From positions 841,041 through 905,040 of the forward strand of contig CP181398.1 of NCBI GenBank assembly GCA_047946875.1: a stretch of 64,000 nucleotides of DNA. The letters run 5' to 3'. Positions within the stretch are counted from its first letter, which is position 1; each line of letters begins with the position of its first letter. The translations under genes were made by a program, and so were the position numbers. Origin of the DNA: Candidatus Kerfeldbacteria bacterium (lineage in GTDB: Bacteria > Patescibacteriota > Patescibacteriia > UBA10025 > JAHIVO01). Of the stretch, positions 16,930-53,616 are shown piece by piece. The notes under the pieces are model-generated. The model searched no databases, was not told where the DNA came from, and saw nothing but the letters and a program-made list of their open reading frames with translations.

Positions 16930-17160
16930 TATCATACATCTACCTTAACATCTTATGTATGAAGGAAACCGGTTAGAATCCGGTGCTGTCGCGCAACTGT
17001 ACTCCATAATTTTTATGGTAAGCCAGGTCGATCATACATAATTATCTTGCATATTTATTTCATAATATGCATTCTCTTCGCGTAAAAAGAGATGGGTAAT
17101 TGTTTATACAATTATGGTCGTCCAAATCCTTGTACTCGAAGTTAAGGATTTTTTTATAAA
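16930..17160 (+). promoter_or_regulatory. Cobalamin (AdoCbl) riboswitch with terminator-type expression platform
   Basis: GGAAACCGGTTAGAATCCGGTGCTGTCGCGCAACTGTA matches the cobalamin riboswitch core. AAGCCAGG B12-box-like segment. Terminator hairpin aatcctt...aaggatt + T7 at 17123-17157, just upstream of the DUF4430 gene. Confidence 0.7.
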
Positions 17161-41306: not shown

Positions 41307-43106
41307 TTATTCTAAATGTTTAAGCTCATTTGCTAATTCAGAAAATTTTTGACTATATTCATTAGCGGCCACCGAATCACCGGATTGTTCAAATTTTTGT
41401 AATTTTAACTCAATCTCCTTTAATTCTAGATGAATTAAATTCTTTTTTAAGTCTTTAGTCCCAGTTTTAAGCTCTTTTTGAATTTCTTCATCTTCCATTT
41501 CACCAAAAAGATTTGAGGCTTTTAAAGACAAAATATTAGCATAAGTTGCTAATTTTTGATCGTTAGCTAAATTTACTTTTATAAATTCATTATAGTCAAA
41601 GTTGTGCTTTTCAGTATAGTAAATTATCATACTTTTGTAAAGTTTTTTCAATTGTTCATTTGGCATAAATTCAGGTAATAACACGTCAACATATTCTTCT
41701 AATAACTCTGGCTTATTTATTATCATGCCAATTACATTCTCTGCCAAGTTTATAAAACGATTCTTTATTTCTGGCTTTGCTATTTCAGGATCAGATTTTT
41801 GTTTTTTTTGACTAGCCGTATCTTTATTTAATATTTGTAATAATTTATCTCTTAAAATATTCTCCTCTACATTCAAAATCCCTGCCAACTTTTGTAAGTA
41901 ATGAGTTTGCTCAATTGGGTCAACTAATTTTGAAATGACAGGCAATAATACTTTTGCAATTTCTTTTTTATCTTCAACTTTTGTTTCATCATATTTATTC
42001 AATGTTGAATCGAAATAATATTCCATAACAGATTGCGCATTTTCAATAGCTCTGGTCCAAGCTGATACATCTTTTTTTATTAAATCGTCAGGATCTTTTG
42101 CGTCAGGCAACTGAATAACTTTTGTATTCATATCTTCTTGCCAGGCCACTTCTATTCCACGTTTTGCAGCAGCATCGCCAGCTACATCTTGATCAAAAGC
42201 AAAAGCAATATTATTTGAAAATCTTTTTAGCATTTTTACTTGCTCAGAAGTTAAAGCTGTGCCAGAAGACGCAACTACATTAATAACTCCAGCCTGATGT
42301 GAAGATAAGCAATCCATATATCCTTCTACTACCACAGCTACTTTTTTTTGCTTTATCTCTTGTCTAGCTTTATCTAAACCAAATACTACATAACTCTTAT
42401 TATATACCAACGTTTGTGGAGAATTAATATATTTTGCAATTTTTTCTTCCTTGCCTAACCATCGTCCACCAAAACCAATTATATTTCCTTGTGTATCGCT
42501 GATTGGAAACATTAAACGATTTCTAAATCTATCATTATATCCGACTCCTCTATCTTTTTTTATAGTTAGGCCAGCCTGAAAAATATCATCCTCTTTATAA
42601 CCTTTTTTTACCAAGTAAGTATTTAATGTATCCCATGCATCCGGAGAATAACCTAATTTCCATTCTTCTATAGTCTCGTCTTTTACCTGACGATCAATTA
42701 AATATTTTTTGACAAATTCTGCTTTAGGATGGTCAACTAAAATTTTATGATAAAAATTTGCAGCTTCCTTACAAACATCCATTAATCTAGTTTTTTGATT
42801 ATTTACTGCTGGATCTTGATATTGCAATTCTACTCCTGCTTTTTTTGCCAACATACGCAATGCTTCAGGAAATTCCATGCCTTCCATCTTTTGAACAAAA
42901 CCATATATATCTCCTCCTTCACCACAGCCAAAACAATGCCATATTTGTTTATCTCTAGATATCATAAAAGACGGCGTCTTTTCATTATGAAAAGGACAAT
43001 TTGCTTTAAAATTATTTGTACCTGCTGGCTTTACTTGAATGTACTCTTGAATCAAGTCAACCACATCAATTTTACTTTTTATTTCTTCAATATTATCTTG
43101 TGCCAT
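41307..43106 (-). CDS. dnaG: DNA primase DnaG
   Basis: Zinc ribbon [11 protein letters not shown]...[12 protein letters not shown] polymerase domain, Toprim EGYMD. Confidence 0.9.
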
Positions 43107-43136: not shown

Positions 43137-43228
43137 TGGCGGAGAGAGAGGGATTCGAACCCTCGAAGGAATTTGACTCCCTTACTTGCTTTCCAAGCAA
43201 GCGCACTAGACCACTATGCGACCTCTCC
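43137..43228 (-). tRNA. tRNA-Ser(GGA)
   Basis: rc GGAGAGGTCGCATAGTGGTCTAGTGCGCTTGCTTGGAAAGCAAGTAAGGGAGTCAAATTCCTTCGAGGGTTCGAATCCCTCTCTCTCCGCCA. Anticodon loop UUGGAAA. Long variable arm. Encoded CCA. Confidence 0.85.
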
Positions 43229-43233
43229 AAGTC

Positions 43234-43485
43234 TTATTTAATATCAGATCGCAACATTTCTTTAAATTGAATTCCACCTTTAAAGCTTTTTATCATTAAT
43301 TCTCTCAAGTAAGCCTCCGATTTTGACTTAAACATTTCTTTATAAATTATTATCCATGGAATACCAGACTTTGTTGATCTTACAGAGCCACTATTATGTT
43401 TTTTAAGTCGTGCAATTAAATTTTTAGTATGTCCAATATAATGCTTTCTATTTTTTTCACTCTGTAAAACATAAGTAACAAACAT
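43234..43485 (-). CDS. Small stand-alone GIY-YIG nuclease (UPF0213/YhbQ-like)
   Basis: FVTYVLQSEKNRKHYIGHTKNLIARLKKHN matches the GIY-YIG motif in an 83-aa protein. Confidence 0.7.
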   Translation of the reverse strand: MFVTYVLQSEKNRKHYIGHTKNLIARLKKHNSGSVRSTKSGIPWIIIYKEMFKSKSEAYLRELMIKSFKGGIQFKEMLRSDIK

Positions 43486-43529
43486 ATATTTTTACTTTCT
43501 GCCGCAGAGCGGCATCCCGCTTTGCGGGG

Positions 43530-43566
43530 CAAGCAAGCGCACTAGACCACTATGCGACCTCTCCAA
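43530..43566 (-). repeat. 37-bp perfect direct repeat of the tRNA-Ser 5' half (copy 2; copy 1 = 43194-43230), bracketing the GIY-YIG gene
   Basis: caagcaagcgcactagaccactatgcgacctctccaa occurs at both sites. Copy 2 lacks the rest of the tRNA and is followed (on the minus strand) by two GC hairpins (CCCGCAAAGCGGG, TGCCGCTCTGCGGCA). A further short remnant GGAGAGGTCC sits at ~43655. Confidence 0.8.
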
Positions 43567-43841
43567 ATTTAACTACTATAAAATATCTTATTTCATCATA
43601 ATCACTAGCATAAGGACATTTATATTATGCGCCTGCCCACCGAAGCATAGCAAAGGTGGGACCTCTCCTTATTTTAACTAAAAATAGCCAAAAATGCTAC
43701 TAATTCAGTATACCATAGCATTTTTATTCACAAAAGAAAAGGTCATAATAAGCCAATTTTGCATAATTTTATAAATATACTTGACTTATATTAATAATTT
43801 GCTAAGATGGGTGCTGGAACCTAGTATTAGGAGGGAGTAAT

Positions 43842-44102
43842 ATGATTCCATTTGACACTTTAGCTGTCATTGGGTTTATTATTCAGCCCTTTCTAATCTC
43901 TAGCCATCCGATCCTGTTGGAGGACGAAAATCGTCTCTCGGACAGGCAACTGGCAAGTGCTATTCTCTGCGGAGATTTACGATACGGTCCCGAGTGGACC
44001 AATATCGAGCGCTGCCAAGTATTTTTCCCAAATGTTGAAGAAGCCCATGATGCAATTGGTCTGCTTGGGAATCGTGATTGGCTAGAGGGTAGGACCTCAT
44101 AG
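43842..44102 (+). CDS. Module A of a tandem duplicated element: 86-codon ORF (or structured RNA) with its own promoter, strong SD and terminator
   Basis: TTGACT-N17-TAAGAT promoter (43786-43815), AGGAGG SD 7 nt before ATG, ~50% GC body, terminator AGGGCGG...CCGCCCT + U-run at ~44167-44212. Near-identical to module B except a 45-nt patch. No family recognised. Confidence 0.35.
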   Translation: MIPFDTLAVIGFIIQPFLISSHPILLEDENRLSDRQLASAILCGDLRYGPEWTNIERCQVFFPNVEEAHDAIGLLGNRDWLEGRTS

Positions 44103-44279
44103 GGTTTGGAGTTGTTGTAACTCCATTGTTGCTCTTGAGGAGAGGGTTGGTTCTACCCAACAAAAAAACTAGGGCGGCTCCTTTTTAGAAACCGCCCTAC
44201 TTTATATTGTTTTTGAAAATATTCAGGACAGCTAAAATTAATTAATAAAAAACCCATCTTCACATTTGTAATGACGGGT

Positions 44280-44465
44280 TTATTCTTTTGACGCCTTGCT
44301 CGTTTCATCTTTCACCTTCTTTTTTTCTTTGTTCCGATCGTATCCTTTTTCACCCTTTTTTTCTGAATGTGGTCCACCAGTTTGTTTTGGTAGTGGGATA
44401 CGACCATGTAAACGTTTAAAACGTTCTAGGTCAGTTTCTTTTTTCTTCTTTTTCTTTTTTGACAC
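44280..44465 (-). CDS. Lys-rich small basic protein (61 aa, GTG start)
   Basis: AAGGAG RBS + GTG. A divergent TTGACA promoter overlaps the module-B promoter. Terminator hairpin at ~44239-44272. Confidence 0.35.
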   Translation of the reverse strand: MSKKKKKKKETDLERFKRLHGRIPLPKQTGGPHSEKKGEKGYDRNKEKKKVKDETSKASKE

Positions 44466-44614
44466 TTTTTACTCCTTTATTTTGAAAGTGACAATTTATT
44501 ATTACTTATTTTATGCCCAATGTCAAGTATATTTATAATATTATTCAAAACTCTTGACATATACCATTAACCTGCTAAGATGGGTGCTGGAACCTAGTAT
44601 TAGGAGGGAGTAAT

Positions 44615-44875
44615 ATGATTCCATTTGACACTTTAGCTGTCATTGGGTTTATTATTCAGCCCTTTCTAATCTCTAGCCATCCGATCCTGTTGGAGGACGA
44701 AAATCGTCTCTCGAGCAGGCAACTGGCAAGTGCTATTCTCTTAGGAGATTTACGATACGGTCCCGAGTGGACCAATATCGAGCGCTGCCAAGTATTTTTC
44801 CCAAATGTTAAAGCAACATCAGGCATTTGTTATCGGCCCCGGGAACGTGAATGGCTAGAGGGTAGGACCTCATAG
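44615..44875 (+). CDS. Module B of the tandem duplicated element (paralog of 43842..44102)
   Basis: Identical promoter (TTGACA-N17-TAAGAT), SD and first ~190 nt. Internal 45-nt segment replaced. Conserved 3' region and terminator (~44940-44985). Confidence 0.35.
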   Translation: MIPFDTLAVIGFIIQPFLISSHPILLEDENRLSSRQLASAILLGDLRYGPEWTNIERCQVFFPNVKATSGICYRPREREWLEGRTS

Positions 44876-45007
44876 GGTTTGGAGTTGTTATAACTCCATT
44901 GTTGCTCTTGAGGAGAGGGTTGGTTCTACCCAACAAAAAAATTAGGGCGGCTCCTTTTTAGAAACCGCCCTACTTTATATTGTCTTAAATTGTTTAATTC
45001 TCCATAA

Positions 45008-47347
45008 CTACTGAACTTTGTGGTAAGTACCCAAAGTAGTAGCCTCTTTGATGCACTCGGAAAATATCAATGGCACCATTTCCTCTTCACTTTGCAAAAA
45101 TGTACTCGCATTACCGATGATTATCAAAGCATCTTCAGCACGAGACAATGCAACACGCAACCGATTTATATTCTTATTAAAACCGATTTTGCCGTTGGTA
45201 TTTGAGCGTACAAAGCTGAGAATAATCACTTTTCGCTGTGATCCCTGGAAAGCATCCACTGTATTTACCGATTGGTATAATATCCTGCGGATAGCTGCTT
45301 CAGTCATGTCAGCAGTTTTTCTCCACTCTTTCAGTCGCCTATCCATAAACAGAGCATCTCGCAGTTTTCTTCTAATCAGATCAATCTGCGCCCTGTATGG
45401 AGTAATTGTGGCAACATCTTCCAGACTATAGCCTTTTAGAAGAAGTTTCACAATACGCTCAACAACGATATTAGCCTCACGACTGTTCAGATAAGAAGTT
45501 CCCTTCCTTTCCTCTTCGTTATCTTGCGCACCTGAAGTGTCAAAGAAAGAAAAATATCCGTCATCATCAGTATCAAACCTCCCGGGTATCAGCATTCCTT
45601 TATAAAAAAGTCTGCTAATAAGCCTGCAAATTACAGGCAATGACCTTCTGTTAACATTTAACAAATTAACAGGAAGCAAACCCATAGAGATAATGCAGTT
45701 GAACCACCCCTTGGAAAAGTTATCAATATCTATCGGAGAAAAACCAGCATGACCCAGATGCTCTCTGGCATCAGGAACAATATCAATATTTCCAAGCTGC
45801 TCGGGATCACCTATAAACACAATCTTGCCAGTTGTTTGCTGGACAATGGGAAGGATTTCAAAAAGAAATCCTCTAGATGCTTCATCAATAAATGTCAGAT
45901 CAAAGCTATATCCCAATTTCCTCAATGCATTCAAGGTGCGATCAACGAGAAAGGAAGACATTGTACAAGCCAATACCACATTACTGCCACCATAAAGCAT
46001 ATTATCAATTTTTTTAGTTTCTCTCTTTGACAATTCGCTGTCCGTATTAGCCTTCTCACTGTCTCTGAATTCGTCATTTACCACAAATCTTGTGGAACGA
46101 TGAAAACTTTTCCCGGGATCAGTTATACTGTCTGCATTGTTTCCAAGCCTGAATATTAAATCTTCATTGCCAATACCCTTAGATACGAAAGAAACTAAAT
46201 TATCCGTACCTTGGTTGCTGTGTGACACAAGAAGAGTTATCCTATTTTGGAGCCATGACTGCTTTATGGCCAAGGAAGTCATAAATGACTTACCTGTTCC
46301 AGCAGGACCCTGCACAAGAACAATACCTCTATTACTAGCAAAGCTAGACAGAGACAATAGCTGCGAACGGTCTTGGAAAAGCATACGGGCCTGAAATTTA
46401 TCAAGAGATAACGAGTCGTACTGCTCTGCACCGTTGTTGTGCTGAACACCCGACATAATGCGATAAGACAATGAAAATTCATCATCATCCACCAAACTAG
46501 TACATAGATCATACTGAGCTTGTGCAATACCGCTACTCACTTCTCTCTTAAATTGAACGATGTCATTGACAGCGAACCTTGGAATAGGTACGGGAAAAGA
46601 AACAATTATTTCTTCTTCGCGTACGGATTCAACAATAGCTGAAATTTCTAAGCCTCTGGAATTAAAAAAGATAATTACATTATCTTCATAAAAAACTGGC
46701 ATTCCACGAAACATAAATTCTTCAGTTATTGGAATCGTCACCCTCTTGACCTTGGGCGCTTTTTTCTTCCCTCTTTTCAAAGGAAATTTGAATCCTATTG
46801 AAAAAGCAAGATGATCAATCCCTTGGAGCCACCCCAAATACCATTCCAGATAAGAAACCGAAACTCTAAGCATTGGACTAAAAAGATCCAAACTCAGTTT
46901 TTGGTCTGGAATTCCGGTAGGACCGAGAGAATGCACCTTAGAATAGTTACATCCCTGATCTGGTGTATGATCAAAAATTATTGGCAAAGGTTCTATAACC
47001 TGACCAATAAGTCCAACAAACTTATCCCAATCTCCTTCAAAATAATGGACATCATAATGCCCATCTTCATGAATAACGAAAATCTGTGGAGAAAAACTCT
47101 TCTTCCCCCCGCCTCGACACAGTATCACCTGCGTATCAGGAAATTCCTTTTTAATAGGAATCGCTACGGTTTCAAGACTTTCATTTATGATGACAATCAG
47201 ATCCGGATTACCTTCTATCTTATCAGGTTTCTTCTCACTGCTTGTTGTGAAGGGAATTTGTCTGCGTTTCAGCTGATCACTGAACACATTATCTCCCCCA
47301 CGTGCAATGAAGAGAACAGATTTGAAACTGAACTCTGGATTTTGCAT
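45008..47347 (-). CDS. Upf1-like superfamily 1B helicase (AAA_11/AAA_12 type) with ~330-aa N-terminal domain of unknown function
   Basis: Walker A LVQGPAGTGKSF. Motif II LTFIDEASRG (DEAS). C-terminal NTVDAFQGSQRKVIILSFVR and RLRVALSRAEDALIIIG (motifs V/VI of Upf1/DNA2-like helicases). Local GC is about 43-45%, well above background. Confidence 0.7.
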   Translation of the reverse strand: MQNPEFSFKSVLFIARGGDNVFSDQLKRRQIPFTTSSEKKPDKIEGNPDLIVIINESLETVAIPIKKEFPDTQVILCRGGGKKSFSPQIFVIHEDGHYDVHYFEGDWDKFVGLIGQVIEPLPIIFDHTPDQGCNYSKVHSLGPTGIPDQKLSLDLFSPMLRVSVSYLEWYLGWLQGIDHLAFSIGFKFPLKRGKKKAPKVKRVTIPITEEFMFRGMPVFYEDNVIIFFNSRGLEISAIVESVREEEIIVSFPVPIPRFAVNDIVQFKREVSSGIAQAQYDLCTSLVDDDEFSLSYRIMSGVQHNNGAEQYDSLSLDKFQARMLFQDRSQLLSLSSFASNRGIVLVQGPAGTGKSFMTSLAIKQSWLQNRITLLVSHSNQGTDNLVSFVSKGIGNEDLIFRLGNNADSITDPGKSFHRSTRFVVNDEFRDSEKANTDSELSKRETKKIDNMLYGGSNVVLACTMSSFLVDRTLNALRKLGYSFDLTFIDEASRGFLFEILPIVQQTTGKIVFIGDPEQLGNIDIVPDAREHLGHAGFSPIDIDNFSKGWFNCIISMGLLPVNLLNVNRRSLPVICRLISRLFYKGMLIPGRFDTDDDGYFSFFDTSGAQDNEEERKGTSYLNSREANIVVERIVKLLLKGYSLEDVATITPYRAQIDLIRRKLRDALFMDRRLKEWRKTADMTEAAIRRILYQSVNTVDAFQGSQRKVIILSFVRSNTNGKIGFNKNINRLRVALSRAEDALIIIGNASTFLQSEEEMVPLIFSECIKEATTLGTYHKVQ

Positions 47348-47439
47348 TCTATATCTCCCATTTGAATATTTTACATTTTATTAAAGAACAAACAATTAAA
47401 AAACCTTAACAAATATTTTGTATCTAGTCAAGCTTTAAA

Positions 47440-47476
47440 AATAACAAAAGAGGCTTATTTTAAGCCTCTTTTGTTT
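47440..47476 (-). terminator. Intrinsic terminator downstream of ppsA
   Basis: aaagaggctta tttt aagcctcttt hairpin flanked by A/T runs. Confidence 0.55.
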
Positions 47477-52694: not shown

Positions 52695-52773
52695 TTAGTA
52701 TTTAAATTTCCGGCATAGCCGGATCAGGCCTGCCTGCCGGTAGGCGGGCTCTGCCTGAATTAATTATTAACAG

Positions 52774-53439: not shown

Positions 53440-53616
53440 CACTATTTAAATCAACATAATCCTCTACAATTCCACCGGCCCATTATCCCTCTGAGTGCAA
53501 CTAAAGAATCTTATCGTCAAAGGTGATGCAATGCCGCCTTCGGCGGAGATTCTCACGTCCCTTTCGACTTCGCTCAAGGTCCTCAGAATGACAATAAGTA
53601 GATGCTAACGAAATTA
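53440..53616. ncRNA. GC-rich structured region (candidate small RNA or 3'-UTR element; strand and identity unresolved)
   Basis: ~50% GC over ~170 nt. Stable hairpins including CCGCC-UUC-GGCGG (plus strand) and flanking CUCUGAG/CUCAGA repeats. Two more hairpins lie at 53300-53345. No ORF. Confidence 0.25.

Follow-up and report, generated by a model that had tools for sequence, protein, structure and literature searches.

A GIY-YIG nuclease gene between a partial and an intact tRNA-Ser copy in a Kerfeldbacteria genome suggests a widespread, apparently undescribed selfish cassette at tRNA genes

Within a 64,000-nt stretch of a Candidatus Kerfeldbacteria genome (assembly GCA_047946875.1, contig CP181398.1, positions 841,041 to 905,040; hereafter the window), the minus strand carries a minimal GIY-YIG nuclease gene that is followed by the intact gene for tRNA-Ser(GGA) and preceded by a partial, hairpin-interrupted copy of the same tRNA gene. 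Sequence comparisons indicate, with a probability of roughly 0.55, that this locus belongs to a large family of small selfish cassettes that are located at tRNA genes and would behave like homing endonucleases. The cassette combines a nuclease gene of the SLX1/UPF0213 type, a partial tRNA that is interrupted by GC-rich hairpins and an intact tRNA, and owing to the presence of the intact copy the host keeps its tRNA function. This anatomy recurs at many tRNAs across phyla and exists in empty, decayed and tandem forms, and its nuclease gene is under purifying selection.

The window contains a single tRNA gene, tRNA-Ser(GGA) (43137..43228, minus strand; detected by ARAGORN and by the Rfam tRNA model with 56.7 bits), and a single GIY-YIG gene. 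The original prediction, which was made from the letters of the window, had described a 37-bp direct repeat of the 5' half of this tRNA. Both copies of the 37-mer (43194-43230 and 43530-43566) were confirmed to be exact, and no match was obtained in 100 shuffled sequences. The repeat consists of two leader bases and tRNA bases 1-35, its last base being the first anticodon base (canonical G34). As had been claimed, the repeats bracket an 83-aa GIY-YIG gene (43234..43485, minus strand; Pfam PF01541, E=3.8e-14), which is the sole open reading frame (ORF) between them, and the bracketed unit measures 336 bp from repeat to repeat. In the displaced copy, the first anticodon base is followed by a pair of GC hairpins (43500..43529; CCCGCaaaGCGGG, then TGCCGCtctGCGGCA), namely CCCGC-aaa-GCGGG (43528-43516) and TGCCGC-tct-GCGGCA (43514-43500). 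These two hairpins had been recognized correctly, but the proposal that they replace the rest of the tRNA did not hold: directly behind them lies GAAAG (43495..43499), which corresponds to tRNA bases 35-39, and the interrupted copy stops at base 39. In four relatives (L002, L118, L006 and L089), 6-8 resumed tRNA bases (GAAAGC or GAAAGCAA) are found at this place. Because tRNA sequence resumes behind the hairpins, the pair was inserted into the anticodon loop of this copy and does not substitute for the remainder of the tRNA. The same hairpin pair is present in the same position in L002, L006, L007, L085, L089 and L118.

Read along the minus strand, the locus comprises a promoter-like block, a first tRNA remnant with its own hairpin, a spacer, the second partial copy, the hairpin pair, GAAAG, the nuclease gene, tRNA-Ser(GGA) and dnaG (41307..43106, minus strand). 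The spacer in front of the second partial copy is AT-rich, 69 nt long (43567..43635, minus strand) and conserved in the close relative L118; 9 nt separate GAAAG from the ORF, 5 nt the ORF from the tRNA and 30 nt the tRNA from dnaG. The dnaG gene is a conserved downstream neighbor of tRNA-Ser(GGA), as the same order is found in L096, L102 and L105, and in L100 and L118 it is preserved with an added ORF in between. The promoter-like block ATGCTATGGTATACT (43707..43721, minus strand) exhibits an extended -10 element (TGgTATACT) and is conserved in front of this tRNA locus in L118 and L092, with an alignment score that was reached by 1 of 500 shuffles. It probably represents the native tRNA-Ser promoter, and a similar motif, TATGGTAAAAT, is located about 47 nt upstream of the tRNA in L096. 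The first remnant consists of tRNA bases 1-9 (GGAGAGGTC; 43660..43668, minus strand), is situated about 39 nt behind the promoter-like block, a position shared with L118, and is abutted by a hairpin of the form CCCACC-13 nt-GGTGGG (43636..43660, minus strand), which has a different sequence but retained pairing in L118.

This short remnant had been proposed as a third tRNA copy near position 43650. The 9-mer by itself is not significant, since about 13 further 9-mer matches to the tRNA exist in the window, and the proposal gains its support from the position behind the conserved promoter block. Homology of this block with L092 and L118 places the 9-nt remnant at the original tRNA start, which supports at least two successive events, in line with the original prediction of more than one insertion round. 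The possibility that the AT-rich spacer derives from the 3' end of an earlier GIY-YIG gene was rejected, because 197 and 234 of 500 shuffles reached the local alignments. A simple tandem tRNA array, which had been named as an arrangement that would contradict an insertion, was likewise rejected, because the window yields only one tRNA and, besides it, fragments of 35 and 9 nt. An independent metagenome-assembled genome of this organism (L001) matches the locus at 100% identity; therefore, the arrangement is not an assembly artefact.

A link of small GIY-YIG genes to tRNAs beyond this locus, which the original prediction had proposed to test, was borne out across other genomes by a survey of one genome per species, which covered 80 loci from Patescibacteria, Ignavibacteria, Bacteroidota, Marinimicrobia and others. 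Of these loci, 69 have a tRNA gene no more than 150 nt away from the nuclease gene, in each case on the same strand; the tRNA density elsewhere in these loci would lead one to expect such proximity in 3.4% of cases. For 91 intact nuclease ORFs, the tRNA was found downstream in 57 cases and upstream in 21, and a partial copy of that tRNA was present beyond the nuclease gene in 45 of the 57 downstream and 19 of the 21 upstream arrangements. The partner tRNAs represent at least 19 anticodon species, and several divergent cassette copies exist inside one tRNA cluster in L010, L046 and L082. One of the few loci without an adjacent tRNA is explained by an insertion sequence (L006 3260-4530; transposase-like ORF, start MRQPSFLAIAQNKK), which lies between the GIY-YIG gene and its tRNA-Ser(GGA). 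A viral collection yielded a single distant homologue, which is not located beside a tRNA, and a phage origin of the cassette was consequently rejected.

The arrangement of the parts varies between lineages. L002 carries the same two hairpins as the window, then the nuclease gene and tRNA-Ser(GGA). L003 exhibits the 5' part of a tRNA-Tyr with hairpins in the D and anticodon loops, followed by the nuclease gene and the intact tRNA-Tyr. In L004, an intact tRNA-Glu precedes the nuclease gene, behind which lies a tRNA-Glu copy whose anticodon arm and T-loop carry hairpins. At most loci of the Candidate Phyla Radiation (CPR), the group to which the window's organism belongs, tRNA sequence restarts behind the hairpin pair (for example, TAAATCTG in tRNA-Tyr), and the partial copy is truncated past the anticodon arm, so that it does not provide a complete tRNA-like fold. 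Bacteroidota and Ignavibacteria show the order intact tRNA, nuclease gene and near-complete tRNA copy; here, a GC hairpin replaces or interrupts the anticodon arm of the second copy, the downstream terminator can be part of the duplication, and in the Bacteroidota locus L072 the second copy scores 53.7 bits as a tRNA.

The partial copies break most often at two places, directly behind the first anticodon base (24 right and 15 left breakpoints) and in the D-loop, and the repeats frequently reach a few bases upstream of tRNA position +1, as is also the case in L118. GC hairpins abut 19 of 24 anticodon breakpoints and 30 of 42 D-loop breakpoints (together 49 of 66), compared with 52 of 2100 random positions (2.5%). 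Direct reading showed hairpin pairs inserted at 56|57 of the T-loop in L002, L004, L022 and L062, and the automated count found no abutting hairpins at its five T-loop-class breakpoints. The density of GC hairpins in the flanks of the nuclease genes is five times that of other non-ORF DNA. Their stems vary by lineage and are still paired (CCCGC/GCGGG, GCCGC/GCGGC, CCGCC/GGCGG, CCGGCC/GGCCGG and CCAGCC/GGCTGG); compensatory changes were observed at 3 of 11 pairs in an alignment of 18 hairpin pairs, and a noisy scan of stem mismatches, aimed at selection on the RNA, counted 23 G.T versus 13 A.C, so that the hairpins may act in DNA or in RNA. The single-sequence fold of the RNA formed by the partial copy and its hairpins was not unusually stable (z = -1.07). 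Searches with Rfam at gathering and permissive thresholds matched only tRNA in the window and eight related loci. In nuclease pairs with 72-85% identity, the region of the partial copy and hairpins can be aligned, and the DNA farther upstream cannot. Hairpins of the same style also exist away from tRNAs in the window, at 52700-52750 in the groES-groEL spacer (TCCGGCtatGCCGGA) and at 53530-53600 (CCGCCgaaGGCGG), the latter being intergenic, next to further GC-rich inverted repeats and without a tRNA nearby; the GC hairpins may thus be a more general small repeat in the Kerfeldbacteria source genome.

Gain and loss of the cassette can be followed at the tRNA-Ser(GGA) locus itself. A metagenome scan with the 35-nt 5' half of this tRNA recovered 32 contigs (L085-L116). 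Several of them (L096, L102 and L105) represent empty sites, at which tRNA-Ser(GGA) is directly followed by dnaG and the nuclease gene is missing, and others (L089, L092 and L100) carry the cassette. The empty L096 and the filled L100 have flanks that are 85% identical; in L100, the shared upstream flank with the TATGGTAAAAT promoter-like motif is followed by a partial copy, the nuclease gene and the intact tRNA. This pair and the empty sites corroborate the claim that a GIY-YIG cassette was inserted at the tRNA and that a working tRNA was retained downstream. A decayed form exists as well in L085, which has an internal deletion in the cassette. L088 and L103 contain a hairpin-bearing tRNA 5' fragment without a nuclease gene. 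L007 contains two exact tandem units, L040 and L075 contain nuclease-free arrays of a hairpin and the tRNA 3' half, and the nested remnants and tandem units seen across L007, L040, L075 and L043 agree with repeated insertion. An added ORF of about 185 codons lies between the tRNA and dnaG in L100 (3880-4600) but not in the empty L096; this tRNA thus has variable DNA on either side. Diverse CPR contigs share the same 35-nt 5' half of tRNA-Ser(GGA), whereas the 3' halves attached to it, with variable arm, T arm and acceptor strand, come in many forms. This may reflect stronger conservation of the 5' half, and an exchange of 5' halves by cassettes would also give an identical 5' half with varied 3' halves.

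The 83-aa protein matches Pfam PF01541 with 53.2 bits (curated cut-off 22.6). Among eight homologues, Y5, Y16, G18, R26, H30 and E62 are invariant, and these include the catalytic Tyr, Tyr, Arg, His and Glu. The protein consists of the catalytic domain only; no additional domain, and hence no DNA-binding domain that could provide a long recognition site, is found in its 83 residues, and no invariant Asn follows E62. The AlphaFold model reached a pLDDT (predicted local distance difference test) of 92, and its top Foldseek matches were 1zg2 (UPF0213 protein BH0048) and the SLX1 nuclease domain, with template modeling (TM) scores of 0.64-0.68 and 30-32% identity. The catalytic domain of I-TevI ranked lower (TM 0.55, 22% identity), and a phmmer search against the Protein Data Bank (PDB) agreed with the UPF0213/SLX1 assignment. 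Accordingly, the gene product is a predicted, domain-only GIY-YIG nuclease of the SLX1/UPF0213 type. The family is large, as a profile search of 1.84 billion representative proteins returned 5,760 clusters at E<=1e-10. As judged from the coding sequences, most copies of the nuclease are under strong purifying selection, with ratios of nonsynonymous to synonymous substitution (dN/dS) of 0.04-0.15 in 20 gene pairs with 72-85% amino-acid identity. A neighbor-joining tree of the approximately 80-residue proteins showed a loose grouping by tRNA identity; the idea that nuclease clades track the insertion type was rejected, since D-loop and anticodon types are mixed in this tree, which is too noisy for such use.

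The relative L118, which was identified via DnaG homologues (87% amino-acid identity in DnaG), allows the age of the module to be judged. It harbors the same module between ppsA and dnaG, comprising the same promoter block, the first remnant with its differently paired hairpin, the spacer, the nuclease gene and the intact tRNA. Its second partial copy contains only tRNA bases 1-14, joined to the hairpin pair and GAAAGCAA, and its nuclease gene shows a CGA to TGA change at the codon of the catalytic Arg26 and an assembly gap of Ns. Since the module is common to L118 and the window, it predates the split of the two lineages and is old and vertically inherited in this lineage. The modules are 88% identical, compared with 89-92% for other intergenic DNA, and the synonymous divergence (pS) of the GIY-YIG gene is 0.40, compared with 0.44-0.61 in flanking genes; a recent horizontal arrival in this lineage found no support in these values. 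The comparison of gene order in relatives, which the original prediction had proposed, therefore yielded a divided result: sites without the insert were found, but L118 shares the module and in part supports the alternative of an old fixed structure. In the two closest relatives, extra DNA that is absent in the window lies between tRNA-Ser and dnaG (L118 5471-6000 and L119 78-401); it includes a 3' tRNA remnant with a GC hairpin in front of it, as well as long inverted repeats rich in GC and an ORF of 107 codons that abuts dnaG. Another DnaG homologue (P0189, 984 aa) contains intein/LAGLIDADG-type Pfam domains (PF14528 and PF14890), which points to an intein within the primase of a CPR relative.

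A larger GC-rich island had been noted to begin beside the locus. The elevated G+C content is real: ppsA and the tRNA promoter are separated by about 3.7 kb of DNA (about 43760-47440) with a G+C content of 0.39-0.40 compared with about 0.31. In L118 this segment is absent, the promoter block lying no more than about 80 nt behind ppsA, and the cassette is present; island and cassette are consequently independent, and the island is a separate, unrelated insertion. It encodes a 779-aa superfamily-1 helicase (45008-47347, minus strand), whose helicase part matches the Mokosh defence protein MkoA (PADLOC, E=3.4e-62), and no partner nuclease gene for this MkoA-like helicase was seen. Two 96%-identical units of about 430 nt (43780-44213 and 44553-44986) lie 773 nt apart, each comprising a promoter-like site (TTGACT or TTGACA, 16 nt, TAAGAT, with TG), an 86-codon ORF and a strong terminator-like hairpin. 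The 86-codon ORF showed no homologue except itself among 5.8 billion proteins and may thus not encode a protein; between the units lies a Lys-rich ORF of 61 codons (44280-44465, minus strand). The sole difference between the window and L001 falls into the second 773-nt repeat copy, where about 47 nt (44620-44666) stand against 10 nt (L001 8857-8866), and probably reflects a repeat collapse or a real indel. Elsewhere in the window, an adenosylcobalamin (AdoCbl) riboswitch was detected above the Rfam threshold (16937-17073, plus strand; 61 bits).

If the locus is indeed a selfish cassette, the following model would account for its structure. The nuclease gene would be transcribed together with the tRNA from the tRNA promoter, as suggested by the finding that no terminator-like site is present between the promoter block and the tRNA, and RNase P would release the tRNA from the common transcript. 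The nuclease would break tRNA gene DNA at or near the loops, namely at 14|15 in the D-loop, 34|35 in the anticodon loop and 56|57 in the T-loop. Repair would then copy the cassette with the conserved flanking tRNA sequence as homology, as in intron-less homing, and the displaced copy would lose its target through the hairpin insertion. If the intact copy were broken again, or if the repeats recombined unequally, nested remnants and tandem units could arise. The tRNA part might be carried by the element or copied from the target, as the sequences are consistent with either. More tentatively, and at somewhat less than even odds, the mini SLX1-type genes, hairpin pairs and disrupted tRNA copies may together constitute an unrecognized class of mobile elements that targets tRNA loops, spares the host by duplicating or carrying the tRNA, and is spread over CPR, Bacteroidota, Ignavibacteria and other phyla with thousands of protein clusters. 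Such elements might recognize a cloverleaf or cruciform DNA structure instead of a sequence.

Several observations speak against a selfish, homing-like cassette. The module of the window diverges like its neighboring DNA and gives no sign of recent movement at this locus. In L089, about 9 of 35 bases of the partial copy deviate from the resident tRNA, and the 3' remnant of L002 corresponds to an allele other than that of the intact tRNA; such foreign alleles are not predicted by simple repair with tRNA halves as homology arms. As the protein lacks a DNA-binding domain, site-specific recognition of a tRNA gene would not be expected from the catalytic domain by itself, and the intact tRNA retains the supposed target, so that self-cutting must be tolerated or prevented. 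Strong long-term purifying selection, as well as conservation of the partial copy and hairpins amid flanks that cannot be aligned, would fit a host-useful function equally, and GC hairpin pairs are not confined to tRNAs, as the groES-groEL spacer shows.

In a different explanation, which we regard as rather unlikely, the locus is a host-serving operon: a useful structure-specific nuclease or tRNA-related factor would be co-transcribed with the tRNA, and the partial tRNA and its hairpins would form a cis-acting RNA element such as an untranslated region or a processing or stability signal. Besides the low dN/dS and the retention of the partial-copy region where neighboring DNA has become unalignable, the invariable strand agreement of gene and tRNA, the vertical inheritance of the module in the window and L118 and the near-complete tRNA-like fold of the Bacteroidota second copy, in which only the anticodon arm is swapped (L072), would be accommodated by this explanation. 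It would also suit the placement of hairpins in loops, where a folded RNA tolerates insertions, and a fusion of GIY-YIG and TrmH domains hints at an RNA link of prokaryotic Slx1 homologues (PMC1564403). A host operon is difficult to reconcile with the patchy distribution and the empty sites in relatives, the diversity of partner anticodons, the divergent copies within single tRNA clusters, the tandem and nuclease-free derivative units and the inactivated copies in L085 and L118; moreover, the CPR partial copy does not form a complete tRNA-like fold, and its predicted RNA is not unusually stable. Even less likely, in our estimation, is a transposon-like system centered on the hairpins, in which non-autonomous palindromes would enter the loops of single-stranded, cloverleaf-folded tRNA gene DNA and be mobilized in trans by the GIY-YIG protein, the tRNA duplications being by-products of staggered cuts or replication restarts. 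Hairpin pairs that stand alone with tRNA sequence on both sides in D, anticodon and T loops (L088, L103, L040, L075 and L002), the similarity of hairpins across different tRNAs with co-varying stems, the SLX1 fold, which acts on branched DNA, and repeats that often begin a few bases before tRNA +1, as would a duplication of resident DNA, are all compatible with such a system. Its weaknesses are that no terminal inverted repeats or fixed-length target duplications delimit an element, that pairs are also situated in intergenic DNA without tRNAs, and that insertions are found only in non-functional copies, where the loop preference could reflect survival and not the insertion site. In addition, we know of no precedent for a GIY-YIG transposase, which further counts against it.

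An ordinary origin by local tandem duplication or slippage, or as the attachment site of an integrase island represented by the adjacent GC-rich region, with the nuclease gene present by chance, is very improbable. Direct tRNA repeats are typical of island attachment sites, the GC-richer 3.7-kb insertion adjoins the locus, and unequal exchange between the 37-nt repeats can gain or remove units without a nuclease. However, the same architecture in about 70 independent loci goes beyond chance or a one-off duplication, so that the recurrence statistics already largely refute this origin, and the agreement of independent assemblies stands against it as well. The attachment-site version was rejected because the repeat is the 5' and not the 3' part of the tRNA, no integrase is located in or beside the bracketed segment and the island is missing in L118 despite the presence of the cassette. 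A group I intron was also rejected, as Rfam provided no intron match in the window and the interrupted copy stops at base 39 and is followed by a full tRNA.

The prokaryotic Slx1-like mini GIY-YIG proteins (UPF0213/COG2827) form a numerous group whose function is not settled, and the strand-specific tRNA link together with the module of partial tRNA and hairpins provides a testable context for them. If mobile, the cassette would offer a selfish gene a minimal means, at 336 bp from repeat to repeat, of settling in a gene that is essential, highly conserved and highly transcribed; the host would survive through duplication and not through splicing. There are also practical consequences for genome analysis. 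The tRNA fragments and repeats can break assemblies, as exemplified by the N gap in L118 and by several contigs that end at a repeat, and tRNA annotation may be misled by the fragments at these loci. Gene callers may translate the hairpin region as an N-terminal extension of the nuclease; this is suspected because many homologues are annotated at 100-140 aa with a match that begins only at residue 25-55.

Among known systems, the closest precedent is SegB of phages T4 and T6, a free-standing GIY-YIG homing endonuclease that is encoded in a tRNA gene cluster and cuts inside tRNA genes at a 27-bp recognition site, which includes a T-psi-C stem-loop motif (PMC2330249; PMC13096335). The preferential inheritance of SegB does not involve an intron; the enzyme also drives the tandem amplification, dependent on recombination, of a unit of tRNA and segB, and across phage genomes it is statistically linked to tRNAs (PMC2330249; PMC13096335). 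The cassette shares with SegB the presence of a GIY-YIG gene among tRNA genes, and with free-standing homing endonucleases in general the close spacing of the gene to its putative target, 5 nt in the case of tRNA-Ser(GGA), the existence of nuclease-free sites in L096, L102 and L105 and the pair of filled and empty sites in L100 and L096. In contrast to the phage-borne SegB, its protein is chromosomal, 83 aa long, restricted to the catalytic domain and part of the SLX1/UPF0213 branch. SegB is much longer and carries a DNA-binding region. The published descriptions of SegB do not mention a hairpin-disrupted partial tRNA copy. Based on the SegB precedent, a GIY-YIG enzyme that cuts tRNA genes can remodel tRNA copy number, and a chromosomal counterpart might do so in very small bacterial genomes. 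The best matches in sequence and fold are the prokaryotic Slx1-like or UPF0213 proteins (COG2827, YhbQ-type; PDB 1zg2 and 1ywl), which likewise consist of the domain only and lack the invariant C-terminal Asn; this minimal form was described by Dunin-Horkawicz et al. (PMC1564403). The same 2006 survey considered Slx1-like proteins as vertically inherited and repair-type and assigned the selfish GIY-YIG proteins to the lineage of UvrC and homing endonucleases (PMC1564403), whereas the large Slx1-like clade identified here appears to behave as a mobile, tRNA-linked cassette.

The interruption of an anticodon loop and the adjacent GIY-YIG gene are reminiscent of group I introns with GIY-YIG genes in bacterial tRNA anticodon loops, and the 34|35 position is the classic intron site of tRNA-Leu(UAA). 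Unlike such introns, the cassette has no ribozyme match and no 3' exon in the interrupted copy, and function is provided by a second, intact copy instead of splicing. With tRNA-targeting integrative elements, such as tyrosine-integrase islands and prophages, it has in common the tRNA target, the bracketing tRNA repeats and the restoration of a working tRNA; those elements duplicate the 3' part of the tRNA and encode an integrase, whereas in CPR the 5' part is duplicated here and the only gene is a nuclease. A literature search for chromosomal mini GIY-YIG cassettes that are linked to tRNAs and carry partial tRNA copies disrupted by hairpins yielded no earlier account, and the recurrence of the layout beside tRNA genes in many uncultured bacteria suggests a widespread, apparently undescribed selfish DNA cassette. 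A further parallel comes from the same group of organisms, as CPR rRNA genes contain reportedly sparse non-intron insertions that encode GIY-YIG proteins and are mostly located at the tips or bases of stem-loops (PMC11270868). Both systems place GIY-YIG genes at genes for structured RNAs; the rRNA insertions lie inside the rRNA genes and were described without tRNA genes, partial duplication or GC hairpin pairs (PMC11270868), whereas the cassette described here is located beside an intact tRNA gene and carries a hairpin-interrupted partial copy of it.

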